Shown: positions 27,849 to 41,087 of the stretch, in pieces
Numbering within the stretch: position 1 is the stretch's first letter
Layout: each line of letters starts with the position of its first letter
NCBI GenBank assembly: GCA_947258705.1
Contig: CAMYJA010000008.1
Span: 2,441 to 66,440, forward strand
Reading direction: 5' to 3'
Length of the DNA: 64,000 nucleotides
From: an uncultured Hyphomicrobiaceae bacterium
Lineage (GTDB): Bacteria > Pseudomonadota > Alphaproteobacteria > Rhizobiales > CAMYJA01
Program-made: the position numbers and the translations under genes
Notes under the pieces: model-generated
Told to the model about the DNA's origin: nothing
The model's input: only the letters and a program-made list of their open reading frames with translations
Databases searched by the model: none

Positions 27849-28506
27849 TTTCTTATCCTCTTACGATACCTGCGCCGGGCCTCTCCGCAGTGTCTGTTAT
27901 ATTTGGTTGTTGAGTCCTCTTCTCGGAACAATTTCGCCTGGCTTGATTCATTCTATAGCTGGTTTACTCTGCCGCTTCTTCAACGTTCTCGACCGGTTAA
28001 ACCTTCGCCGCATAATATTTGATCTTCGGGATGTTGCCGAAGAGATCCGGTTGGGGTTGGTCAGCGCATTGGCAGGCCCCTTGGCAAAGCAGAACGGAAT
28101 GAACTCATCTCCGGATTTAGGGATGCATGGTCCGAGTCCCGTTCTATCAAGGCCAGCATATTCGTAGGGCGCAACAGATCCCATCTGGTATTCCATATGC
28201 CATATATCAGTTATAATCCACCTGTCCAGTTTAGTTTGTGTTTGCCATTCCCCACCCTTGAAGAATGGCTCTTTGAAATAAATTTTTATAACTTTAAAAC
28301 AATAGGTTATAAAATATTGCAAACTATGGAGTTCCCCCAAGGCTTTCAAAATGATAACATTAAGCATCGGCGAAATGCGACCTTACAATGGGGCTGTACT
28401 TGCAACGCGTTAATATCTGTGGGATACTGCCGACCATATACCAGATGGAAGAGCAATTATAAAATCGGCCTTCACCGCTGCGCGTGAATTTTCACGGGCT
28501 GCGCAA

Positions 28507-28587
28507 TAAATGGGTGCAGTCAAGCACCCTGAGTAAATGGGTGCAGTCAAGCACCCTGAATAAATAGGTGCAGTCAAGCGCACTGGA
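28507..28587. repeat. Three head-to-tail 27-bp direct repeats, each carrying a GGGTGC-N6-GCACCC palindrome
   Basis: Unit A (28507-28533) is taaatgggtgcagtcaagcaccctgag. Unit B (28534-28560) is identical at 26/27 positions. Unit C (28561-28587) is taaataggtgcagtcaagcgcactgga, 23/27 identical to B. The array ends 4 nt before the tctC SD (AGGGAG at 28592-28597). Confidence 0.9.
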
Positions 28588-28603
28588 TAATAGGGAGAAA
28601 ACA

Positions 28604-29602
28604 ATGACGAAGCACAAAGCTATATCTTTGGGCATGGCAATGGCCGGCGCCGCTGCCCTGTCCATGACAACTGGCCTGGGATCGGCACTCGCAGCCGATT
28701 GGAAACCGGCAAAGCCGGTTGAGTTTGTCGTGATGGCTGGCAAGGGTGGCGGTGCCGACAAGGCAGTGCGTTACATGCAGGGCGTTATTGCCGAAGAAAA
28801 GCTCGGGCCGACGATAACCCCGGTTAATAAGGCTGGCGGTTCGGGTGCCGTAGCGCTCAACTATTTAAAAGGCAAGAAGGGTGACAATCACACCATCATG
28901 TTCACCTTGAACAGCTTCTACACTACGCCACTTCGCCAGCCGAAGCTTGGGGTCAACATCGAAAACTTCACACCGATCATGCGGATGGCTGAGGACACCT
29001 TCTGTCTCTGGGTTAACACTGCACGCAAGGACGGCAACAACATCAAGAGCGTCGATGATTTTGTCAAAGCCGCAAAAGCGGCCGGCGATAAATGGATTAT
29101 GGCCGGTACGGGCAAGAATTCAGAAGACAATCTGCTCACGGATTTCCTTAATTCCGCTTATGGCCTGAAGATGAAGTATGTGCCGTATAAGGGCGGCGGT
29201 AAGGTGGCCAAGCAACTGGCCGGTAATAATGCCGACTCCACGGTCAACAACCCTTCGGAGCAAGAAGGTTTTTACAAGGCCGGAAATACGCGTCCCTTGG
29301 CATGTTTCACGGATAAGCGTATTCCGCTGTTCCCGGATGCTCCAACATTCAAGGAAATTGGCAAGGACTTTGTCTATTACATGCAACGGACCGTTGTCGG
29401 TACGCCCGGCATGAGTGCTGACGCCCAAAAATATTATAACGATCTCTTCACGAAGGTCTTCAATTCCAAGAAATGGCAGGCTTATCGTAAGAAGAAAGCA
29501 CTGCAGGGCGACCCGCTTGCCGGCGACGACCTGATGAAATATTGGAAGCGAGAACGCGACGTTCACAAGGCAATGCTTAAGAAAATGGGTGCAATCAAGT
29601 AG
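28604..29602 (+). CDS. tctC: Tripartite tricarboxylate transporter (TTT) substrate-binding protein, TctC/Bug family
   Basis: Start at the ATG at 28604, after AGGGAG. It has a signal peptide, MTKHKAISLGMAMAGAAALSMTTGLGSALA. YVPYKGGGKVAKQLAGNNADSTVNNPSE is the Bug-family core motif. Confidence 0.85.
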   Translation: MTKHKAISLGMAMAGAAALSMTTGLGSALAADWKPAKPVEFVVMAGKGGGADKAVRYMQGVIAEEKLGPTITPVNKAGGSGAVALNYLKGKKGDNHTIMFTLNSFYTTPLRQPKLGVNIENFTPIMRMAEDTFCLWVNTARKDGNNIKSVDDFVKAAKAAGDKWIMAGTGKNSEDNLLTDFLNSAYGLKMKYVPYKGGGKVAKQLAGNNADSTVNNPSEQEGFYKAGNTRPLACFTDKRIPLFPDAPTFKEIGKDFVYYMQRTVVGTPGMSADAQKYYNDLFTKVFNSKKWQAYRKKKALQGDPLAGDDLMKYWKRERDVHKAMLKKMGAIK

Positions 29603-29741: not shown

Positions 29742-30290
29742 GTGACTGTTCGAACGGCAGAATTGGTGATGGCGATCGTTATGGGCCTGTTCTCCGCATA
29801 TCTGATGATGAAAAGCGCGGAGCTACCTTATGGATGGATCCCGGGCGAGGGTCCCGGTGGCGGTGCCTGGCCATTCTGGTTATCGGCCATCATGCTGGTC
29901 TGCTGTATTGTCATGGTCGTTAACTGGATCCGCCGAACCAACCCTCCATCACAGGATATGGAGGCGTTCTTTCCGGCGGGTGTTCTCAAGAATTCAGGCT
30001 CCGTGGCCCTGGTTCTGACCCTCGTTGTCGGTCTGTTCAACGGTGTCGAGCTCGGCGGAGTCACATTGCTGCCGGCAATCGGGGCCTATCTGGCGATTTT
30101 CATTTTCATGGTCTTCTACGTTGGTGTGCTCGGACGGCACGACTTTGTCAAAACCGCAATATTTTCGATCAGCGTACCGGTGCTCACATTCCTCTTTTTT
30201 GAGCTGGCACTGAAGATAATACTGCCGAAAGGTGTAACAGAACCGTTGTTCCTGCCAATTTTCAAGTATTTCGGTCTGGGGGGGCTGTAG
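29742..30290 (+). CDS. tctB: TTT small membrane subunit, TctB family
   Basis: 182-aa, four-TM ORF lying between tctC and tctA in the canonical order. Confidence 0.7.
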   Translation: MTVRTAELVMAIVMGLFSAYLMMKSAELPYGWIPGEGPGGGAWPFWLSAIMLVCCIVMVVNWIRRTNPPSQDMEAFFPAGVLKNSGSVALVLTLVVGLFNGVELGGVTLLPAIGAYLAIFIFMVFYVGVLGRHDFVKTAIFSISVPVLTFLFFELALKIILPKGVTEPLFLPIFKYFGLGGL

Positions 30291-30403: not shown

Positions 30404-31951
30404 ATGACTGAGATTGTCTATCTTCTTCTCGATGGTTTTTATGTCGCGTTTCAGCCGCTTAACCTCGCACTCATCGTTCTGGGATGCGCCGCCGGTCTCT
30501 TCATTGGCGCGATGCCTGGGCTTGGCTCGGTGAATGGCGTCGCGATTCTGCTGCCGCTCACTTACCTCGTGCCCCCCACGGGTGCGATCATCTTTCTGGC
30601 GGCACTTTATTATGGCGCGATGTATGGGGGTGCGATTTCATCGGTCATGCTGGGTATTCCCGGTGCGTCGACCGCGGTGGCGACGACCTTTGATGGTCGA
30701 CCATTGGCAAAGATGGGAATGGCGGACAAGGCGCTGACCGCTGCTGCGGTGGCCTCGTTTGCAGGCGGAACTATTTCCGTCATATTGTTCACGATGGCGG
30801 CGCCGCCACTGGCGCATATTGCGCTCGTTTTTGGCGACCCTGAAGAATTTGCTCTCATGATGCTGGCCTTCGCAACCTTTATCGGGCTCGGCGGCGACGA
30901 TATAGCAAAAACCATTTTCTCGATATGTATCGGTCTTGTTTTGGCAGCTGTCGGTTTTGACACGGTGTCGGGCGAACCGAGGCTGGTCTTTTTTGACATC
31001 ACCAATTTCATGGATGGCGTCAAGTTCCTCGTCCTTGCCATCGGCATCTATGGCATTGGCGAAATGCTATGGACCATTGAGGAAAATACGCGCGCCGGTG
31101 GCGCGTCTCAGCTGTCGAAGGCGACCGTCAGCCTGAAGCGGACGATTGCCAATCTGCGTGAGCTGGTACGCTCTTGGAAGACCATGGTAATGGGCTCGGT
31201 GCTCGGCTATGTTGTCGGCATTCTGCCGGCCGCTGGCGCCACACCTGGTTCGCTGATGGCTTATGGCATCGGCAAGCAGATCTCGAAAGATCCGGACTCG
31301 TTCGGCAAGGGTAATGTGGAAGGAGTCATCGCCCCGGAGGCCGCTAATAATGCGGCATCGACAGGTTCCATGCTGCCGATGCTTACGCTTGGCATTCCAG
31401 GATCGCCAACAACAGCGATTCTTCTGGGCGGCATGGTCCTGTGGGGACTGGAGCCCGGACCGCGGCTCTTCTCGGACGAGCCAAGCTTTGTCTGGGGCCT
31501 GATAGCTTCCCTTTACGTGGCCAACTTCTTTGCAGTGGTCCTGAATATTGCCTTCATCCCGGCGTTCATCTGGGTCCTCAAACTGCCCTTCACGCTGCTT
31601 GCGCCAATCATCTTCGTGCTTTGCCTTGTCGGCGGATATGCACCTACTCAATCCATGTATGATGTTTGGCTAATGCTTCTGTTTGGAATTGTGGGTTATT
31701 TGATGCGCAAGCTGGACTATCCGCTTGCCCCCGCTGTTCTTGCCATTGTTCTCGGTCCGCTGGCTGAGCGCGCGTTGCGTCAGTCCTTGTTGATCAGCGG
31801 TGGCGAATTGTCCATTTTTGTCGATCCGGTAAACCGGCCCTATGCCGCTTTCATTATGTATGCCGCACTGGTTTTGTTGTTCCTGCCGCTATTTATGATG
31901 ATCAGAAGGCGATTGACGAGCGGGAAGGCAGCCAGTACGGAGCCGAGTTAA
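30404..31951 (+). CDS. tctA: TTT large permease subunit, TctA family
   Basis: 515-aa polytopic ORF. GAMPGLGSVNGVAILLPLTY and GYVVGILPAAGATPGSLMAYG are typical TctA motifs. Confidence 0.85.
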   Translation: MTEIVYLLLDGFYVAFQPLNLALIVLGCAAGLFIGAMPGLGSVNGVAILLPLTYLVPPTGAIIFLAALYYGAMYGGAISSVMLGIPGASTAVATTFDGRPLAKMGMADKALTAAAVASFAGGTISVILFTMAAPPLAHIALVFGDPEEFALMMLAFATFIGLGGDDIAKTIFSICIGLVLAAVGFDTVSGEPRLVFFDITNFMDGVKFLVLAIGIYGIGEMLWTIEENTRAGGASQLSKATVSLKRTIANLRELVRSWKTMVMGSVLGYVVGILPAAGATPGSLMAYGIGKQISKDPDSFGKGNVEGVIAPEAANNAASTGSMLPMLTLGIPGSPTTAILLGGMVLWGLEPGPRLFSDEPSFVWGLIASLYVANFFAVVLNIAFIPAFIWVLKLPFTLLAPIIFVLCLVGGYAPTQSMYDVWLMLLFGIVGYLMRKLDYPLAPAVLAIVLGPLAERALRQSLLISGGELSIFVDPVNRPYAAFIMYAALVLLFLPLFMMIRRRLTSGKAASTEPS

Positions 31952-32125: not shown

Positions 32126-32812
32126 ATGACCAAGTTAAAAGTTGCAGTCAAACCTATAGGCCCGGATCTCAGCCTCAAAGAGAGAAGCTATCAGGCGTTG
32201 CGTGAAGCAATCACCAACATGAATATTTACGACGATAACGCTGAGCTCAAGCTCGATGAGCGTACCCTGTCGCAACAGTTCGGGATAAGCCGCACGCCAC
32301 TTCGCGAAGGTCTTGCCCGGCTGGAGCAGGAAGGGCTGATCAAGATCGTTCCGCGCCGAGGCGTCTATGTCGTGCGCAAGACCAAAGCAGAAATTCTCGA
32401 CATGATCTGCGTCTGGGCGGCGCTGGAAAGCATGGCGGCCCGGCGGGCAACCAAACTGGCGAGTGAAGAGGGTCTGAGCGCATTGCACGACCTCGTCGAC
32501 CTGTTCGATTATGACGATGTAACCGGGCACATGGGCGAATATTCTGAGGCCAATATAAAATTCCATCAGGCAATCATCGCCCTTGGCGCTTGCGATCTGA
32601 TCAAGGAGATCACCGACGGGCTATTCATGCATGTGCGCGCCATTCGTCAGCGGACCATTTTTGAAAACGACCGCGCACGCCGGTCCATCGTCGACCATAA
32701 GGAGATCGTTATTGCGTTGGAGGCGCGCGATACGGAACGCGCCGAACGTCTCGTGCGCGAACATACGCTCAAGCTGCAAGCCCATGTCGAACGATATGTA
32801 GATATTGATTAG
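32126..32812 (+). CDS. GntR-family transcriptional regulator with FCD effector domain (FadR subfamily)
   Basis: 228-aa ORF with a winged HTH (LSQQFGISRTPLREGLARLEQEGLIKIVPRRGVYV) followed by an all-helical FCD-type domain with H/D metal ligands. Confidence 0.85.
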   Translation: MTKLKVAVKPIGPDLSLKERSYQALREAITNMNIYDDNAELKLDERTLSQQFGISRTPLREGLARLEQEGLIKIVPRRGVYVVRKTKAEILDMICVWAALESMAARRATKLASEEGLSALHDLVDLFDYDDVTGHMGEYSEANIKFHQAIIALGACDLIKEITDGLFMHVRAIRQRTIFENDRARRSIVDHKEIVIALEARDTERAERLVREHTLKLQAHVERYVDID

Positions 32813-32998
32813 AAAACGGAAACAGTTAGGAATTTGCGTCGATTATGGACCATTGCGGTTATGACCACAATTAGAAGCCCGGGGATCGAAAATGGACAAC
32901 CGCCTATTTTATAACCCAAACGTCTTTGCGAGGGTTTCTAACGCAAATCTGCTTATGCTTGGATAAACGCAATTATGAAGTGACGGGGGAATTCAAAA

Positions 32999-34510
32999 GT
33001 GATTCAGGATTTGATTGCCGGACATCCCGATGACGGTCCGGCGATTGGTGCGCCAGACAGGCCATCGCTAACATTTGGCCGCTTGCGCTCGTTGATTGAT
33101 AAAACCGGTGCGGCGCTAACCGGTCTCGGAGTTAGCCGAAGCGACCGCGTGGCTATCGTTCTGCCCAACGGACCGGAGATGGCAACCGTATTCCTGGGTG
33201 TTGCCAACGCTGCGGTGGCCGCTCCTCTCAATCCGTCTTACAAACAGGATGAGTTTGAATTCTATATTTCAGATCTGAATGCAAAGCTCCTCATTGTCGA
33301 AAAAGGCAGCACATCACCTGCGGTCGAGGCGGCGGGCAAGCTAGGCGTTACTGTTGCAACAATTGAATGGCCTGACGACGCGCCTGCTGGTGATTTCGCC
33401 ATATCCGGCGCCGCTGGCACCGATGCCCCGACACCTGGGACGAAAGATGATGCCTGCCTCGTGCTTCACACGTCGGGGACCACATCGCGGCCCAAGATCG
33501 TACCGTTAAGTCATGGCAATCTGGAAGCGTCCGCGCACAATATCGGGGCGTCTTTGAAACTCACGGACAAAGACCGTTGCCTCAATGTCATGCCTCTGTT
33601 TCACATTCACGGGTTGATCGCCGCCGTCCTGTCGGGGATAGCGGCAGGTGGCGAAGTCGTATGCACACCGGGCTTCAATGCACTGCGTTTTCGCCGCTGG
33701 CTCGACGATATCAAGCCAACCTGGTACACGGCAGTGCCAACCATGCATCAAGCGATCCTATCACGGATAAAATCCTCTGATGGCATCGAGAGCAGCTTGC
33801 GGCTTATCCGTTCAAGTTCGGCTTCGCTACCACCCCAGACGATGAAAACGCTCGAAGACACCTTTGGCTGCCCAGTGGTCGAAGCCTATGGCATGACCGA
33901 AGCCGCACACCAGATGGCCTGCAATCCGTTGCCGCCCGCGCCGCGCAAGGCGGGAACCGTCGGCATTGCGGCCGGGCCGGAAGTCGCCATCGCCGATGCC
34001 AGCGGTCAGATACTGAATCAAGGCGCACTCGGAGAGATCGTTATCTCAGGCGCCAACGTGACGGCTGGCTATGAGAACAATCCAACCGCCAATGCAGAAA
34101 ACTTCTTTGACCGGACCGATGGCAAAGGCCGCTGGTTCCGCACTGGCGATCAAGGCACTCTGGATGAAGAAGGCTATTTGTCCATCACCGGTCGCATCAA
34201 GGAAATCATCAACCGCGGGGGCGAGAAGATTTCCCCACGCGAGGTCGATGAAGTATTGTTGGACCACGAGGCGGTAGGGCAGGTTGTGACATTTGCCCTG
34301 CCCCATGACACGCTTGGAGAGGACGTTGCGGCTATCATTGTCCTAAATGAAGGCGCGGAGGCAAATGAACGTGAAATTCGCGATTTTGCAGCCACCCGGC
34401 TCGCAGCGTTCAAGGTACCGCGCAACATATTTTTCATGGATGAAATTCCAAAAGGTGCCACCGGCAAGCTGCAACGCATAGGTCTGGCTGAGAAACTGGG
34501 GCTAGTTTAA
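32999..34510 (+). CDS. AMP-forming acyl-CoA synthetase of the AAE3/Pcs60 type; candidate oxalate-CoA ligase (oxalyl-CoA synthetase)
   Basis: 503-aa ORF with a GTG start. It carries the AMP-binding motif LHTSGTTSRPK. Long stretches agree with my recollection of plant AAE3: DEFEFYISDLNAKLL, PLFHIHGL, TWYTAVPTMHQAIL, LRLIRSSSASL, EAYGMTEAAHQMACNPLP, GRIKEIINRGGEKISPREVDEVLL and LAAFKVPRNIFFMDEIPKGATGKLQR. Confidence 0.7.
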   Translation: MIQDLIAGHPDDGPAIGAPDRPSLTFGRLRSLIDKTGAALTGLGVSRSDRVAIVLPNGPEMATVFLGVANAAVAAPLNPSYKQDEFEFYISDLNAKLLIVEKGSTSPAVEAAGKLGVTVATIEWPDDAPAGDFAISGAAGTDAPTPGTKDDACLVLHTSGTTSRPKIVPLSHGNLEASAHNIGASLKLTDKDRCLNVMPLFHIHGLIAAVLSGIAAGGEVVCTPGFNALRFRRWLDDIKPTWYTAVPTMHQAILSRIKSSDGIESSLRLIRSSSASLPPQTMKTLEDTFGCPVVEAYGMTEAAHQMACNPLPPAPRKAGTVGIAAGPEVAIADASGQILNQGALGEIVISGANVTAGYENNPTANAENFFDRTDGKGRWFRTGDQGTLDEEGYLSITGRIKEIINRGGEKISPREVDEVLLDHEAVGQVVTFALPHDTLGEDVAAIIVLNEGAEANEREIRDFAATRLAAFKVPRNIFFMDEIPKGATGKLQRIGLAEKLGLV

Positions 34511-35484
34511 TGCGTGTTTGTATTTATGGTGCTGGAGCTATTGGCGGCTACGTCGCAGTACAACTTCATCTGGCGGGCGTCGAAACCAGCCTCGTTGCCC
34601 GTGGCCCACATCTCGAGGCCATCAGGAAAGACGGCCTGCGACTGCGTATTGGCGGCGAAGAACGGGTCGCAAATCTGCCTGCAAGTGCCGACCCGCAGGA
34701 ACTTGGTCTTCAGGATGTCGTGATCATCACGCTCAAGGCGCATTCGGTGCCAAACGTCGTCGATGGCGTCGCCTCGCTACTCGATAAAGACGGCTCGGTT
34801 GTCAGCGCCGTTAATGGTGTGCCGTGGTGGTATTTTTACAAAAACCCTGGAAAGTGGGAAGACCGACGTTTGGAGACAGTCGATCCGGGTGGGCGTCAAT
34901 GGGACGTGTTGAAACCTGAACGCGTCATTGGCTGCGTTGTCTACCCGGCCTGTGAAATCGTTGAACCCGGCGTCATCGCCCATGTCGAAGGCGACCGGTT
35001 TTCCCTTGGTGAACCGGATGGCGAAAAGACACCGCGCATCCAGGCCATTTCGGACGCTTTCCGCAGCGCAGGATTTAAGGCGCCGGTCCGCCCCCGTATT
35101 CGCGATGAAATCTGGGTCAAGCTGTGGGGCAATCTCACATTCAACCCGTTGAGCGCACTCACCGGAGCCACACTGGAACAGCTATGCAGTGATGACGATA
35201 TGCTCGAAATCGTCCGCGCCATGATGACAGAGGCGCAAACCATCGGCGAGACCCTTGACGTGCGTTTTCCTGTATCCCTTGAAAAGCGCATCGCCGGTGC
35301 AAAAGCGGTCGGAGCACACAAACCTTCCATGCTGCAGGATCTGGAACTGGGTCGTCCCATGGAAATTGACGCGCTGGTAAGCGCAGTTCAGGAATTGGGT
35401 CGGCTGACCGAAGTTCCCACACCGGTGATCGACATGGTGCTCACACTCGTTCGTCAGCGCGCCCGGCTAGCCGGTTGTTATTGA
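34510..35484 (+). CDS. ApbA/PanE-family 2-dehydropantoate 2-reductase-like oxidoreductase; candidate oxalyl-CoA reductase (PanE2 type)
   Basis: 324-aa ORF with an N-terminal Rossmann motif, MRVCIYGAGAIGGYVAVQL, and a C-terminal KPSMLQDLELGRPMEIDAL motif typical of ketopantoate-reductase-fold enzymes. Its ATG overlaps the ligase stop (TAATG at 34508-34512). Confidence 0.6.
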   Translation: MRVCIYGAGAIGGYVAVQLHLAGVETSLVARGPHLEAIRKDGLRLRIGGEERVANLPASADPQELGLQDVVIITLKAHSVPNVVDGVASLLDKDGSVVSAVNGVPWWYFYKNPGKWEDRRLETVDPGGRQWDVLKPERVIGCVVYPACEIVEPGVIAHVEGDRFSLGEPDGEKTPRIQAISDAFRSAGFKAPVRPRIRDEIWVKLWGNLTFNPLSALTGATLEQLCSDDDMLEIVRAMMTEAQTIGETLDVRFPVSLEKRIAGAKAVGAHKPSMLQDLELGRPMEIDALVSAVQELGRLTEVPTPVIDMVLTLVRQRARLAGCY

Positions 35485-35710: not shown

Positions 35711-36535
35711 TTAATGTTTTCTGCCACCAATGGCTTCGGTGATTCTGGCTGCCGTACGTTTTACCAAGGGGCCAAATTCGCCGAGAACCTCATTTGTCAT
35801 GCGTACGCTTGGTCCTGAGATGGAAATACCGGCGATGGCTTCATTGTGCTCATTATAGATGGGAGCAGCCAGGCATCGCATGCCGATATTGCGCTCCTCA
35901 TTGTCGATCGCCCAGCCGCGCGCGCGCGTTTGTTCGAGATCCGCAAAAAGCACTTCCGTGGACGTGATCGTATTCGGGGTGAATGAGGGCAGCCCTCTTT
36001 TCTGCATGATTTGCTGAACGGCATCGCGCGCGAGTTCGGATAAAAGCGCCTTGCCAATTCCCGACGAATGCATGTTCCCGCGTGTTCCAGGCGGGAAGAA
36101 GGCGCGTATTGCTTCATGTGTTTCCACCTGAGATATGAAGACAACTTCGCCATCAATTGCGATGGCCAGATTAGCCGTCTCACCTGTCGCCTCCATCAAT
36201 TCGCGCATCAGCGGGCGACTGGCCTGAACGACATTTGTCTGGCGAATGAACGAGCTACCGATGCGGAAGGCTTCTACTCCGATCATCCAGTTCTGGGTAC
36301 CCTCTTCGAATGCTACCATTCCGTGCCTTTGCATCGTCATCAGCAACCGATGTGCGGTTGACGGCGCCATACCGGTCCTGTGCGCCAATTCGGTCAAAGT
36401 GCCCTCATCGAGTTCGGTCAGACTATTGAGCAGCCCGAGCGCCCGATCCAGAGCCTGAACAGTCCCTCCCGCCTTTTCGGGACTGCCGGAACGGGGCCGG
36501 CCACGCGTCTTCTTATATTTGGCCTCTGTCGGCAT
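35711..36535 (-). CDS. bhcR: IclR-family transcriptional regulator (BhcR-like)
   Basis: 274-aa ORF with an HTH (LTELAHRTGMAPSTAHRLLMTMQRHGMV) plus an IclR effector domain. It is divergent from a four-gene operon with the bhcABCD fold order. Confidence 0.65.
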   Translation of the reverse strand: MPTEAKYKKTRGRPRSGSPEKAGGTVQALDRALGLLNSLTELDEGTLTELAHRTGMAPSTAHRLLMTMQRHGMVAFEEGTQNWMIGVEAFRIGSSFIRQTNVVQASRPLMRELMEATGETANLAIAIDGEVVFISQVETHEAIRAFFPPGTRGNMHSSGIGKALLSELARDAVQQIMQKRGLPSFTPNTITSTEVLFADLEQTRARGWAIDNEERNIGMRCLAAPIYNEHNEAIAGISISGPSVRMTNEVLGEFGPLVKRTAARITEAIGGRKH

Positions 36536-36761: not shown

Positions 36762-37952
36762 ATGAACGGCCAAAACCCCGTTTTCATACCGGGCCCTACC
36801 AATATTCCGGATCGCCTGCGGGTGGCCATGAGTGCCCAGACCAAGGACCACAGGGCATCGGATGTTACGAAAATTCTTGGTCCTCTGCCGGAGGGTCTTA
36901 AAAAGGTCTTCAAAACCGAGTCAGGACGGGCACTGATCTTTCCTGCTAGCGGAACCGGCGGATGGGAGGCGGCGGTGACGAATACCCTGTCGCCGGGCGA
37001 CAGGGTGCTTGCGGCACGACACGGTCTGTTTTCTCAAAAGTGGATCGATCTGTGCCAGCGCCACGGTCTCGATGTGGACGTCATTGATCGCCCCTGGGGT
37101 TCGGGAGCGCCCGTGGATCTGTTTGAGGAGCGGCTGAGCGCCGACACATCTCATGAGATCAAGGCAGTGCTTGTTACGCACAATGAGACCGCGACCGGGG
37201 TCAAGAGCGACGTGGGCGCCGTGCGCGGTGCGATCGATGCGGCGGGACACCCGGCGATGCTTTTTGTGGATGCTGTCAGCTCACTCGGATCGATGGATTT
37301 CCGCATGGATGAGTGGGGCGTCGATATCGCTGTTTCTGGCTCTCAGAAGGGGTTTATGTTGCCGACGGGCATCGCAATCCTCGCAGTGAGCGAAAAAGCG
37401 CATGCCGCGATTGAGACCGCGAAATGCCCGCGCTGTTTCTTCGACTTCCGCGATATGGACGACGCGCTTTCCACAGGCGGCTTTCCATATACGCCGCCGA
37501 TGCAGCTTCTGTTAGGCCTGCGCGAGTCGCTTGACATGCTTTTCGAGGAAGGGTTGGACAATGTCTATGCGCGACACTTCCGGCTTGCCGAAGGCGTGCG
37601 TCGCGCGGTTGCAGCCTGGGGGCTGCGTATGTGCGCCGAGAGCCCGGAACTCTACTCGGATTCGGTAACGGCAATCTACGTTCCGGAGGGGTTTGATGCC
37701 CATGCGCTGACCAACTACGCATACGACACCTACGGCGTGTCGTTTGGTGCCGGGCTTGGTGAATTTGCGGGCAAGGTCTTTCGCATCGGGCATCTGGGTG
37801 CCCTCACGGACGTCATGGTTCTGTCCGGCCTTGCGACCGCTGAAATGGCTATGAAAGATCTCGACTACCCGATTGAGCTTGGCTCCGGCGTTGCCGTGGC
37901 TCAACAATATTACCGCGAGACGGCAAATGCCGCCCGCTTCAAAGCCGCATGA
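36762..37952 (+). CDS. bhcA: Class V aminotransferase (serine/alanine/aspartate-glyoxylate type); BhcA-like aspartate-glyoxylate aminotransferase
   Basis: 396-aa ORF with the PLP-lysine motif SGSQKGFMLPTG. It shows AGXT-like organisation and is the first gene after the IclR regulator. Confidence 0.65.
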   Translation: MNGQNPVFIPGPTNIPDRLRVAMSAQTKDHRASDVTKILGPLPEGLKKVFKTESGRALIFPASGTGGWEAAVTNTLSPGDRVLAARHGLFSQKWIDLCQRHGLDVDVIDRPWGSGAPVDLFEERLSADTSHEIKAVLVTHNETATGVKSDVGAVRGAIDAAGHPAMLFVDAVSSLGSMDFRMDEWGVDIAVSGSQKGFMLPTGIAILAVSEKAHAAIETAKCPRCFFDFRDMDDALSTGGFPYTPPMQLLLGLRESLDMLFEEGLDNVYARHFRLAEGVRRAVAAWGLRMCAESPELYSDSVTAIYVPEGFDAHALTNYAYDTYGVSFGAGLGEFAGKVFRIGHLGALTDVMVLSGLATAEMAMKDLDYPIELGSGVAVAQQYYRETANAARFKAA

Positions 37953-37959
37953 GGATGTC

Positions 37960-38928
37960 ATGACAGATAACAGCGATCTCTATATTCCCACATTCTGCGA
38001 CATGCTTGAGGCCCATGAACGGATCAGGCCCTATGTCCATAAAACGCCTGTCCTGACATCGAGCTACTTAAACAGCCTGATCGGCGCGGAGATTTTTTTC
38101 AAATGCGAGAATTTTCAGAAGGCTGGCGTTTTCAAGGCGCGCGGCGCATCAAATGCCGTATTCGGACTTGATGAAGAAAAAGCCAAGAAGGGGGTCGCCA
38201 CGCATTCTTCCGGCAATCACGGCCTGTCGCTATCCTATGCTGCCGGCAGGCGCGGCATCACGGCGACGGTGGTCATGCCGCACACAGCGCCCGATGCCAA
38301 GAAGGACGCCGTGCGCGGCTATGGTGGAACGATTGTGGAATGCGAACCCTCGACCTCTTCGCGCGAGGCCGTTTTCGCTGAAGTGGTCGAAAAAACTGGC
38401 GCTGATTTCATCCACCCCTATAATGATCCAAGGGTAGTCGCGGGTCAGGGCACCTGTTCGCGCGAAATGCTGGAACAGGTTGACGATCTCGATGCCATTA
38501 TCGCCCCCATCGGCGGCGGCGGCATGGTGTCTGGAACCTGTCTGACTCTATCCAACATGGCGCCAAATATTAAGATCTATGCAGCCGAGCCGAAGAACGC
38601 CGATGACGCCTATCGTTCATTCAAGGCCGGTCACATCATCGCTGACGATGCGCCGCAAACCGTAGCAGATGGCCTCAAGGTGCCACTGAAGGACCTCACC
38701 TGGCATTTTGTCTCCAACTATGTAGAAGACATCTTGCTGGCAACGGAAGAAGAGATTATCGACGCGATGAAGCTCACATGGGAGCGCATGAAGATCGTCA
38801 TGGAGCCGTCAAGTGCCGTGCCGCTCGCTACTATGATTAAGAACAAACCCGTTTTTGCAGGAAAGCGCGTCGGTGTTATCATTACCGGCGGCAATGTCGA
38901 CCTCGACAAGCTGCCATGGAACAAATGA
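37960..38928 (+). CDS. bhcB: PLP-dependent Ser/Thr dehydratase-fold enzyme (3-hydroxyaspartate ammonia-lyase type); BhcB-like beta-hydroxyaspartate dehydratase
   Basis: Start at the ATG at 37960 (MTDNSDLY), 8 nt after the bhcA stop. It has the PLP-lysine motif CENFQKAGVFKARGA, the SSGNHG loop and GGGGMVSG. Confidence 0.65.
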   Translation: MTDNSDLYIPTFCDMLEAHERIRPYVHKTPVLTSSYLNSLIGAEIFFKCENFQKAGVFKARGASNAVFGLDEEKAKKGVATHSSGNHGLSLSYAAGRRGITATVVMPHTAPDAKKDAVRGYGGTIVECEPSTSSREAVFAEVVEKTGADFIHPYNDPRVVAGQGTCSREMLEQVDDLDAIIAPIGGGGMVSGTCLTLSNMAPNIKIYAAEPKNADDAYRSFKAGHIIADDAPQTVADGLKVPLKDLTWHFVSNYVEDILLATEEEIIDAMKLTWERMKIVMEPSSAVPLATMIKNKPVFAGKRVGVIITGGNVDLDKLPWNK

Positions 38929-38945
38929 TTAGGGAGGAATTAGAG

Positions 38946-40109
38946 ATGACCGCACATTTTAAGCCCGAGGAATACGAAGTCGGATATAACATCCCCGCAG
39001 CCGTCGGCATGGATGAAGCTGATATCCAGACCCCTTGCCTGGTCCTCGATCTCGATGCGCTTGAGCGCAATATCAAGAAGATGGGGCAATTCGCCAAGGA
39101 CATGGGCGTACGCCACCGGGTGCATGGCAAGATGCATAAATCGGTGGACGTAGCGCTTCTGCAGGAAAAGCTGGGCGATTCATGTGGTGTTTGCTGCCAG
39201 AAGGTCAGCGAGGCCGAAGCATTTGCCCGCGGTGGCATCAAGGACGTTCTGGTTTCCAATCAGGTGACCGATCCGGCCAAGATTGACCGCCTTGCGCGCA
39301 TGCCGAAACTTGGAGCTCGCACCATTGTTTGCGTGGATAATGTCGATAATGTTGCCGACCTTTCGGCAGGGGCGCAAAAGCACGGTACCACCATTGAGTG
39401 TCTCGTCGAGATTGATTGCGGTGCCGGACGCTGCGGCGTAACCACGACACCGGAGGTTTTGGAAATCGCCAGGGCGATTGCGGCAGCCCCTGGACTCAAA
39501 TTTTCAGGAATCCAGGCCTATCAGGGCGCCATGCAACACATGGACAAATATGAAGACAGGAAGGAAAAGATCGATATTGCGGTCGCCATGGTAAAGGATG
39601 CGGTCGAGGCATTGAAAGCCGAGGGAATGGAATGCGATATCGTTGGCGGCGGCGGCACAGGTTCTTACTATTTCGAAGGAACCTCCGGCGTTTACAATGA
39701 ATTACAATGCGGTTCCTACGCCTTTATGGATGCCGATTATGGCCGCATCCTCGATAAGGACGGTAACCGTATAGATCAGGGTGAATGGGAAAACGCCTTG
39801 TTTATCCTCACAACCGTGATGAGCCATGTGAAGGCCAATCTAGCCGTTTGCGATGCCGGCCTTAAGGCACAGTCAGTGGACTCCGGCCTTCCGGTGGTCT
39901 TTGGCCGCGATGATGTGAAATATTTCAAATGCTCCGACGAGCACGGTGTTATCGAAGATCCCGATGGCGCATTGAAGATCAATGACAAACTAAAGCTCGT
40001 TCCCGGTCATTGTGACCCGACCTGCAACGTTCACGACTGGTATGTCGGCGTGCGCAACGGCAAGGTTGAATGCCTGTGGCCGGTAACGGCCCGCGGCCTG
40101 GCCTATTGA
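38946..40109 (+). CDS. bhcC: DSD1/alanine-racemase-fold PLP enzyme (D-threonine-aldolase / D-3-hydroxyaspartate type); BhcC-like beta-hydroxyaspartate aldolase
   Basis: The preferred start is the ATG at 38946, 8 nt after AGGGAGG (38931-38937). TPCLVLDLDALERNIKKM and HGKMHKS form the fold-type III N-terminal barrel with its PLP lysine. The C-terminal LVPGHCDPT is a D-serine-dehydratase-like motif. Confidence 0.65.
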   Translation: MTAHFKPEEYEVGYNIPAAVGMDEADIQTPCLVLDLDALERNIKKMGQFAKDMGVRHRVHGKMHKSVDVALLQEKLGDSCGVCCQKVSEAEAFARGGIKDVLVSNQVTDPAKIDRLARMPKLGARTIVCVDNVDNVADLSAGAQKHGTTIECLVEIDCGAGRCGVTTTPEVLEIARAIAAAPGLKFSGIQAYQGAMQHMDKYEDRKEKIDIAVAMVKDAVEALKAEGMECDIVGGGGTGSYYFEGTSGVYNELQCGSYAFMDADYGRILDKDGNRIDQGEWENALFILTTVMSHVKANLAVCDAGLKAQSVDSGLPVVFGRDDVKYFKCSDEHGVIEDPDGALKINDKLKLVPGHCDPTCNVHDWYVGVRNGKVECLWPVTARGLAY

Positions 40110-40121
40110 CGGGAGTTTGCT

Positions 40122-41087
40122 TTGCTTATCATATCCGAAGAGACCTGCCAGCAAGTCATAGATCGCTCCGATGCTTTCACTGCGGTGGAAAATGTTTTCG
40201 CCGCTATGGCGCGGGGCGATGCCTATAATTTCCCCGTCATCCGGGAAGACATTGGCCACGCAGATGCGCTTTATGGCTTCAAATCCGGTTTTGACCGGGC
40301 GGGTTTGGTACTCGGCGTGAAGTCGGGCGGCTACTGGCCGGGCAATGCAGAAAAAGGACTGACCAACCACCAGTCGACAGTATTCCTGTTCGATCCTGAT
40401 ACCGGTCAACTCAAAGCCCTGGTGGGAGGTAACTACCTCACGGCCATGCGTACGGCCGCTTCCAGCGCAGTTTCGATCTCCCATCTCTCTCGCGAAGATT
40501 CAAAGGTGCTCGGTATGGTCGGTGCGGGGCACCAAGCCGCCTTCCAATTGCGTGCGGCAGCTGAGCAGCGAAAATTCGAACGAGTTGTCGCCTGGAATTT
40601 TCATCCCGAGATGTTGCCGGGGCTTGCCGAGGTCGCCGGCGAGATCGGGTTGCCATTTGAGGCCGTCGAGAGAGAACAGCTGGGTGCCGAAGCGGATGTC
40701 ATCATCACGATAACGTCTTCCCATGAACCGCTGATGATGAAGGAATGGATCAAGCCGGGTACCCATCTCGCGTGTATGGGTACGGACACCAAGGGCAAGC
40801 AGGAGGTCGATCCGGCTCTTGTCGCACGCGCAATGCTTTTTGCAGACGAAGTGTCTCAATCAGCCACGATTGGTGAAACGCAACATGCCGTTTCTGCTGG
40901 ATTGATTGACGAGGGCGCGATTACACCCGTTGGCAAGGTCATCAATGGTGCTCATCCGGGCCGGCAATCCGAAAATGACATTACTTTATTTGACGGCACG
41001 GGCGTGGGGTTGCAGGATTTAGCGGTAGCAAATGTTGCTGCAAATCTCGCGCAGGAGCGGGGATTGGCAGGACTGGCGGAGTTGTAG
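40122..41087 (+). CDS. bhcD: Ornithine cyclodeaminase/mu-crystallin family protein; BhcD-like iminosuccinate reductase
   Basis: 321-aa ORF with a TTG start after GGGAG. NYLTAMRTAASSAVS and the Rossmann motif GMVGAGHQAAFQL are typical of the OCD/mu-crystallin family. It is the fourth gene of the cluster. Confidence 0.65.
   Translation: MLIISEETCQQVIDRSDAFTAVENVFAAMARGDAYNFPVIREDIGHADALYGFKSGFDRAGLVLGVKSGGYWPGNAEKGLTNHQSTVFLFDPDTGQLKALVGGNYLTAMRTAASSAVSISHLSREDSKVLGMVGAGHQAAFQLRAAAEQRKFERVVAWNFHPEMLPGLAEVAGEIGLPFEAVEREQLGAEADVIITITSSHEPLMMKEWIKPGTHLACMGTDTKGKQEVDPALVARAMLFADEVSQSATIGETQHAVSAGLIDEGAITPVGKVINGAHPGRQSENDITLFDGTGVGLQDLAVANVAANLAQERGLAGLAEL

Follow-up and report, generated by a model that had tools for sequence, protein, structure and literature searches.

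An overlapping gene pair of an oxalyl-CoA synthetase and a PanE2-type reductase predicted to convert oxalate to glyoxylate in an uncultured Hyphomicrobiaceae bacterium

Here, we describe two adjacent genes in a 64,000-nucleotide stretch of DNA (the window) from an uncultured Hyphomicrobiaceae bacterium (GenBank assembly GCA_947258705.1, contig CAMYJA010000008.1, positions 2,441 to 66,440 of the forward strand) that are predicted to convert oxalate to glyoxylate. The first gene, oxs (32999..34510, plus strand; 503 amino acids, GTG start), is assigned to the AAE3/Pcs60-type oxalate-CoA ligases (oxalyl-CoA synthetases) from its Pfam domains, its Protein Data Bank (PDB) matches, and its oxalate-contacting residues. 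The second, panE2 (34510..35484, plus strand; 324 amino acids, ATG start), appears to encode a PanE2/ApbA2-type reductase, that is, a predicted NADPH-dependent oxalyl-CoA reductase (CoA-acylating glyoxylate dehydrogenase), from its Pfam domains, the NCBIfam model NF005089, and a clade-specific insertion. Genes for a tripartite tricarboxylate (TTT) transporter and a GntR/FCD-family regulator precede the pair, and a cluster for the beta-hydroxyaspartate cycle (BHAC) follows it.

Direct reading of the junction (GTT TAA TGC GTG) places a TAATG stop/start overlap at 34508..34512 of the plus strand, in which the oxs stop codon TAA (34508-34510) and the panE2 start codon ATG (34510-34512) share a single A. 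An initial annotation, made from the sequence alone, had claimed two open reading frames coupled through TAATG, and both frames and the shared base are indeed present. Operons commonly show such overlaps, so that the overlap alone carries little information; it does favor coupled translation of oxs and panE2. Among 60 related genomes, each representing another family of the same order (61 genomes including this one), the overlap geometry is kept in five (TGATG in four and GTGA in one), and overlaps of 1 or 4 nucleotides (nt) are found in approximately 23-26 of 59 directly adjacent ligase-reductase pairs of other species. A G-rich, Shine-Dalgarno-like run lies 8-9 nt 5' of the oxs GTG. In a consensus scan for promoters and terminators, sites were no commoner than in shuffled sequence, with nothing convincing 5' of oxs or 3' of panE2.

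The ligase contains both domains of the ANL adenylate-forming fold (AMP-binding, PF00501, E 1e-74; AMP-binding_C, PF13193, E 1e-14). The protein falls below the cut-off of every NCBIfam model: “FadD7 family fatty acid-CoA ligase” scores highest, at 415 bits (cut-off 650), against 291 bits (cut-off 558) for malonyl-CoA synthase. The three best distinct PDB proteins are all oxalate-CoA ligases, namely A. thaliana AAE3 (5ie0, E 6e-122, residues 12-497), Lathyrus OCS (6qjz, 8e-117), and yeast Pcs60 (8aff, 1e-110), and the next ligases of other specificity, FadD13 (1e-60) and malonyl-CoA synthetase (MatB, 5e-58), follow at a margin of approximately 60 orders of magnitude. The motif-level agreement with plant AAE3 claimed earlier is thus borne out by comparison with the solved AAE3/Pcs60 enzymes.

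The oxalate pocket of AAE3 comprises Val215-His216, Cys288-Ser289, Ala313-Met314, His319, and Lys500; Ser289 and His319 are described as conserved solely among oxalyl-CoA synthetases, and the characterized ligases of this clade show a drop in efficiency of approximately 10^4-fold on malonate and succinate (PMC8905533). In the PDB alignment, these positions read Ile-His, Ser-Ser, Gly-Met, His, and Lys in the window ligase, five of the eight being identical. The oxalate-contacting Ser289, His319, and Lys500 (AtAAE3 numbering) are all kept, and the changes in the pocket lining are conservative (V215I, C288S, and A313G). Judging from these matches, the ligase is most likely an AAE3/Pcs60-type oxalyl-CoA synthetase. 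Its best solved relatives, plant AAE3 and yeast Pcs60/Fat2, resemble it in the substrate-contacting residues and differ in the pocket lining (V215, C288, and A313 against I, S, and G here); furthermore, in plants and yeast oxalyl-CoA is decarboxylated, not reduced as predicted for the present route.

The reductase adopts the two-domain PanE/ApbA architecture (ApbA, PF02558; ApbA_C, PF08546), and among NCBIfam models it scores highest on NF005089 (PRK06522.1-4), with 493 bits against a cut-off of 223. The only curated models that it passes are this one and TIGR00745, both of which describe broad subfamilies. NF005089 also recognizes proteins of Methylobacterium bullatum (436 bits), Cupriavidus metallidurans (534 bits), and Azospirillum ramasamyi (528 bits), which adjoin oxs, frc, or oxlT. 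On the equivalog model of the E. coli type, NF005087, the reductase scores 45 bits and does not pass (cut-off 351), whereas E. coli PanE (from NC_000913.3) reaches 525 bits on NF005087 and does not match NF005089 at E <=1e-30. Among PDB entries, the reductase best matches 3ghy, which is a Ralstonia “ketopantoate reductase” from structural genomics (E 1e-78); E. coli PanE is absent from the 13 PDB sequences that match at E <=1e-5.

In E. coli PanE, we take Lys176, Glu256, Asn98, and Ser244 to be catalytic and Arg31 to bind the NADPH phosphate. The Arg31 equivalent is kept in the reductase in the alignment, so that NADPH is the likely hydride donor. Two features are common to the window reductase, the Methylobacterium, Cupriavidus, and Azospirillum proteins, and all oxalate-linked relatives: a 16-17-residue insertion after Asn98-Gly99 (NG[VI]P[WY]WYF...) and the replacements Asn194Leu and Asn241His (AHK[PT]SMLQD). 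E. coli PanE resembles the reductase in fold and in the catalytic Lys/Glu/Asn/Ser set but belongs to another NCBIfam model, lacks the insertion, and carries Asn at 194 and 241, the positions occupied by Leu and His in the PanE2 clade.

The reductase shares 58% identity with the homologue of C. metallidurans and 49% with that of M. bullatum. In a quick maximum-likelihood tree, from which E. coli PanE and very distant paralogues were omitted because their long branches dominated an earlier version, the window reductase groups with the proteins of relatives G053 and G035, both of which are oxs-linked. The sister of this group, with support 80, is a clade that holds the proteins of C. metallidurans, Azospirillum, and oxc/frc-linked relatives; the Methylobacterium clade branches apart, over a backbone with support values of 66-86. 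We consider the protein most likely to be a PanE2/ApbA2-type oxalyl-CoA reductase, on the strength of its subfamily and clade-specific features. C. necator ApbA2, which shares 51% identity with M. extorquens PanE2, is encoded near frc-oxc, and its deletion slows growth on oxalate (PMC7486775).

A ligase orthologue (at least 61% identity) was detected in six of the 60 relatives, and in five of these (G053, G035, G045, G027, and G017) it lies directly 5' of the best reductase homologue (58-83% identity). A species-level scan, with one genome per species, identified 80 loci with a ligase orthologue (61-66% identity) across Alpha-, Beta-, and Gammaproteobacteria, Myxococcota, Planctomycetota, Latescibacterota, Poribacteria, and metagenome-assembled genomes of Bryobacterales. 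A PanE2-type reductase is encoded at 73 of the 80 loci, directly downstream of the ligase in 59, directly upstream in 6, and with only tct or oxlT genes between the two in 8; among the seven reductase-less loci, two stop within approximately 1.3 kb of the ligase. The pairing of ligase and reductase is thus far beyond chance. M. bullatum carries the order oxlT-panE2-oxs, with a ligase 61% identical to that of the window.

In G045 (locus L024, 11621-13785), oxs-panE2 is directly followed by genes for a tyrosine recombinase (integrase) and an IS91-family transposase, which suggests mobility of the two-gene cassette. The neighbors of the pair in the other pair-bearing relatives are unrelated genes; together with the integrase and transposase of G045, this indicates that the pair behaves as a self-contained two-gene cassette.

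Reductases of the same type also occur apart from the ligase, at loci with other oxalate genes. In G040, panE2, two oxlT genes, tctA, and tctC are followed by frc and oxc; G060 carries frc-oxc-tctABC-gntR with panE2 approximately 7 kb further; and panE2 precedes tctCBA-gntR-oxc-frc in G036, and tctCBA-gntR-oxc in G029. The order is gntR-tctABC and then panE2 in G013, and in G002 panE2 is divergent from an frc-like gene whose product is 57% identical to C. metallidurans Frc. In C. metallidurans itself, panE2-gntR is followed by an frc that passes its cut-off (623 bits vs 504), and in Azospirillum, oxlT is followed by panE2, with gcl 6 kb off. None of the pair-bearing relatives encodes oxc, which is present in many ligase-less relatives. 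The reductase is thus tied to one of two routes to oxalyl-CoA.

Upstream of the pair, on the plus strand, are tctC (28568..29602; TctC, PF03401, E 6e-25), encoding the periplasmic binding protein of the TTT transporter and a proposed oxalate receptor; tctB, for the small membrane subunit (29742..30290; TctB, PF07331, E 5e-13); tctA, for the large membrane subunit (30404..31951; TctA, PF01970, E 6e-148); and the gene for the regulator (32126..32812; Pfam GntR and FCD domains), which probably controls the module. TctA orthologues (at least 64% identity) are present in 16 of the 60 relatives. In nine of these (G003, G036, G008, G060, G029, G023, G001, G028, and G050) tctA lies no more than 10 kb from oxc, and in one more, G013, it adjoins gntR and panE2. 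The tctC orthologues (50-79% identity) adjoin oxc or panE2 in relatives, and GntR orthologues (59-66% identity) are encoded between tctA and oxc in G036 and G029 and also at the oxc locus of G060; a 51% identical GntR homologue follows panE2 in C. metallidurans. Moreover, tctA is found at 13 of the 80 ligase loci, some of them in the window order tctCBA-oxs-panE2 (Rubrimonas and Rhodovulum iodosum). That one tctCBA-gntR cassette accompanies oxc at some loci and oxs at others speaks well, if circumstantially, for a TTT system specific to oxalate, and TctCBA probably imports oxalate, a ligand assignment drawn from synteny alone. A literature search, judged by title and abstract, returned no paper linking TTT transporters to oxalate uptake.

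In the 186-bp spacer between gntR and oxs, ACGCAAT/ATTGCGT half-sites recur both directly and inverted (32832-32839, 32852-32862, 32941-32951, and 32963-32977); they are candidate binding sites of the GntR/FCD regulator. Three head-to-tail units of 27 bp, each with the inverted repeat GGTGC-N6-GCACC, lie at 28505-28595, just 5' of and into the listed tctC start, and may represent an operator array or hairpins resembling repetitive extragenic palindromic elements. The true tctC start may lie downstream of the listed GTG.

Downstream, bhcR, which encodes the IclR-type BHAC regulator (35711..36535, minus strand; NF045644, 379 bits, cut-off 350), is convergent with panE2 across a gap of 226 bp. 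Divergent from bhcR, on the plus strand, is bhcABCD (36762..41087), consisting of bhcA (36762-37952; 706 bits, cut-off 650), bhcB (about 37984-38928; 599 bits, cut-off 550), bhcC (38916-40109; 750 bits, cut-off 690), and bhcD (40122-41087; 580 bits, cut-off 500). The cluster is complete and in canonical order, with all five proteins above their NCBIfam equivalog cut-offs. The longest bhcB frame opens at a TTG at 37873 and overlaps bhcA by 80 nt; the match to the BhcB model begins at residue 38, so that the real start is probably near 37984.

Searches of this genome returned no oxc, frc, or gcl above curated cut-offs and no malate synthase domain, and the BHAC is the only recognized dedicated route of glyoxylate assimilation found in it. 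A CoA-transferase of the Frc/YfdE type was considered as a second source of oxalyl-CoA and rejected, as both family-III CoA-transferases of the genome score below the Frc and YfdE cut-offs. With no oxc or frc above cut-off and both transferases below these thresholds, oxalyl-CoA has no evident source other than the ligase. A glcD-like gene at 29004-30890 of contig C6 of this genome (G000) (468 bits, TIGR00387 cut-off 568), adjoined by a second gene of the FAD-binding type, probably belongs to a glycolate oxidase that feeds the BHAC, and the cycle would then probably also serve glycolate.

Considering these lines of evidence jointly, we regard the conversion of oxalate to glyoxylate by this pair as likely. 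The function had been proposed in the initial annotation together with comparisons to AAE3/Pcs60 and to bona fide PanE, and it gains support from the family and pocket residues of the ligase, from the placement of the reductase in NF005089 rather than in the E. coli-type subfamily, and from synteny. Under the proposed scheme, oxalate would be taken up via TctCBA; Oxs would adenylate it and transfer it to CoA (oxalate + ATP + CoA -> oxalyl-CoA + AMP + PPi); and the PanE-fold enzyme would transfer a hydride to the thioester (oxalyl-CoA + NADPH -> glyoxylate + CoA), the stop/start overlap favoring coupled translation of both enzymes. Glyoxylate would then pass to the adjacent BhcABCD (2 glyoxylate + 1 NADH -> oxaloacetate), most likely the glyoxylate sink of the pair. 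The analysis establishes the families of the two proteins, the pocket residues, the conserved synteny, and which genes the genome holds; the substrates, the cofactor, the specificity of the transporter, and the link to BhcABCD are inferred. By our own estimate, two oxalate molecules cost approximately 4 ATP equivalents and 6 electrons before oxaloacetate is reached, so that the route would serve carbon assimilation or detoxification beside another energy source, not energy supply.

The complete module, in which TctCBA takes up oxalate under the control of the GntR/FCD regulator, Oxs and PanE2 form glyoxylate, and assimilation proceeds via the BHAC only, without Oxc/Frc, glyoxylate carboligase, or malate synthase, is put forward tentatively, at slightly below even confidence. 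Such a route is undescribed in the literature that we searched, where no paper joins oxalate assimilation to the BHAC. In Paracoccus denitrificans, BhcR responds to oxalate in vitro, and the organism does not grow on oxalate (PMC11323563).

Several observations weigh against these readings. The catalytic set of E. coli PanE (Lys176, Glu256, Asn98, and Ser244) is wholly kept in the alignment of the reductase, which also passes the broad TIGR00745 apbA_panE model (181 bits, cut-off 141). The same-genus proxies M. bullatum and C. metallidurans stood in for M. extorquens AM1 PanE2 and C. necator H16 ApbA2, and the backbone of the reductase tree is weakly supported. By our own estimate, without Oxc/Frc the route would yield almost no net energy, making oxalate an unlikely sole energy source here. 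As to the BHAC, 9 of the 61 genomes have a BhcC above its cut-off, the five pair-bearing relatives not being among them, and bhc genes lie within 6 kb of the ligase at none of the 80 loci. In G053, the closest relative, the DNA 3' of panE2 has its syntenic counterpart in this genome on another contig. A conserved adjacency of the pair and the BHAC cluster was rejected on these grounds, and the link between the two accordingly comes from gene content, not synteny.

One alternative is a role of the reductase in pantothenate synthesis. All sources label the homologues of the reductase 2-dehydropantoate 2-reductase, and panE2 is the sole ApbA/ApbA_C gene in a 100%-complete genome that also carries panB, as expected if it were the real ketopantoate reductase of the organism and its position beside the ligase were unrelated to oxalate; the retained catalytic residues and the TIGR00745 match point the same way. 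The low NF005087 score, the replacement of the pantoate-side Asn194 and Asn241, and the clade-specific insertion argue otherwise, as does the distribution of these genes across the order. No ApbA_C gene was found in 25 of the 61 genomes, 19 of which still have panB, so that another enzyme commonly supplies the ketopantoate reductase step in this order; IlvC, which can stand in for ketopantoate reductase in other bacteria, is present in this genome. Conversely, G045 (98% complete, one contig) and G047 (100% complete) encode a PanE2-type reductase, and panB was not found in either, which indicates that the subfamily exists where no ketopantoate would be made. A role in pantothenate synthesis also leaves unexplained why, across phyla, such genes are linked to oxs, oxc, frc, and oxlT, and we judge it distinctly unlikely as the function of the gene, while ketopantoate reductase activity as such, sole or additional, is possible.

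The remaining alternatives concern the substrate and direction of the pair. ANL ligases and PanE-family reductases are promiscuous families, TTT transporters carry varied carboxylates, and the ligase falls below every NCBIfam equivalog cut-off, all of which would allow the pair to act on another small acid, for example by converting malonate to malonate semialdehyde or by using another short dicarboxylate. Such a substrate is nonetheless distinctly unlikely given the retained Ser289 and His319, specific to oxalyl-CoA synthetases, the poor efficiency of characterized clade members on malonate and succinate (PMC8905533 for both), and the malonyl-CoA synthase score of little more than half the cut-off. 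The partner genes at other loci, oxc, frc, and oxlT, are oxalate-specific as well. In TTT systems, dependence on a binding protein implies uptake, and the neighboring transporter speaks for import and not export; in addition, a complete glyoxylate-consuming pathway adjoins the pair, and AMP-forming ligases normally run in the activating direction. These points render highly improbable a reverse operation in which oxidation of glyoxylate gives oxalyl-CoA and the ligase then frees oxalate, making ATP from AMP and PPi, although the PanE2/ApbA2 reaction is described as reversible and oxidative use has been proposed for C. necator (PMC7486775). Conversion of oxalate to glyoxylate hence remains the preferred reading.

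The two-enzyme route as such is already known, and this pair is a further, routinely mis-annotated instance. Schneider, Skovran and Vorholt reportedly described in 2012 an oxalyl-CoA synthetase (Oxs) and the oxalyl-CoA reductase PanE2 in M. extorquens AM1, where glyoxylate from oxalate is said to be assimilated by a variant of the serine cycle. The Methylobacterium/Methylorubrum extorquens system combines the same two enzyme families and the chemistry predicted here, and the genes are adjacent in Methylobacterium, as seen in M. bullatum. The window differs in gene order (oxs-panE2 with a stop/start overlap, against panE2-oxs in M. bullatum), in transporter (TctCBA instead of OxlT), in the absence of the oxc/frc energy branch from this genome, and in its glyoxylate sink, which is probably BhcABCD rather than the serine-cycle variant of AM1. 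The ApbA2 of C. necator, a CoA-acylating glyoxylate dehydrogenase, is of the same PanE2 type as the reductase here, and the C. metallidurans homologue falls into the same NCBIfam subfamily; in Cupriavidus, unlike here, oxalyl-CoA comes from Frc with no adjoining AAE3-type ligase, and assimilation in C. necator proceeds through the glycerate pathway (PMC7486775) and not through the BHAC as proposed for the present bacterium. Metabolic engineers already combine Fat2/Pcs60 with PanE2 (PMC12686821). What is less ordinary at this locus is the TTT-GntR cassette common to oxc loci, the lack of an Oxc/Frc branch, and the neighboring BHAC cluster.

As anticipated in the initial annotation, routine labels obscure this function: the homologues of the reductase are named “2-dehydropantoate 2-reductase,” and the top, sub-cut-off model of the ligase is that of a fatty acid-CoA ligase. 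Oxalate use can hide behind such names, and surveys with frc and oxc as sole markers miss organisms such as this bacterium, a weakness of these markers that was already raised in a review of oxalotrophy (PMC13409138). Because the pair is very widespread, correcting NF005089 and adding a model for the ligase would alter many annotations. The repeated linkage of TctCBA-GntR with oxc or oxs and the adjacency of bhcABCD suggest an oxalate-specific TTT receptor and oxalate as a BHAC input; if this is true, the TctC encoded here would bind oxalate as a receptor of the TTT family, and the BHAC would have oxalate as a previously unrecognized input.

Two further observations were made at loci of other genomes. 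On the second replicon of C. metallidurans CH34 (locus L005, 13405-15327), a thiamine-diphosphate enzyme is encoded directly 5' of frc, where oxc would be expected; it scores 225 bits on the oxc model (cut-off 739) and better on the models “acetolactate synthase PRK05858” and 2-hydroxyacyl-CoA lyase, passing neither cut-off. On contig C1 of G029 (locus L043, 8342-10527), the gene for a BhcA-like class-V aminotransferase (sharing 58% identity with the window BhcA) lies approximately 110 nt 5' of that for a second PanE2-type reductase (57%), and the two possibly form a pair leading from oxalyl-CoA to glyoxylate to glycine.

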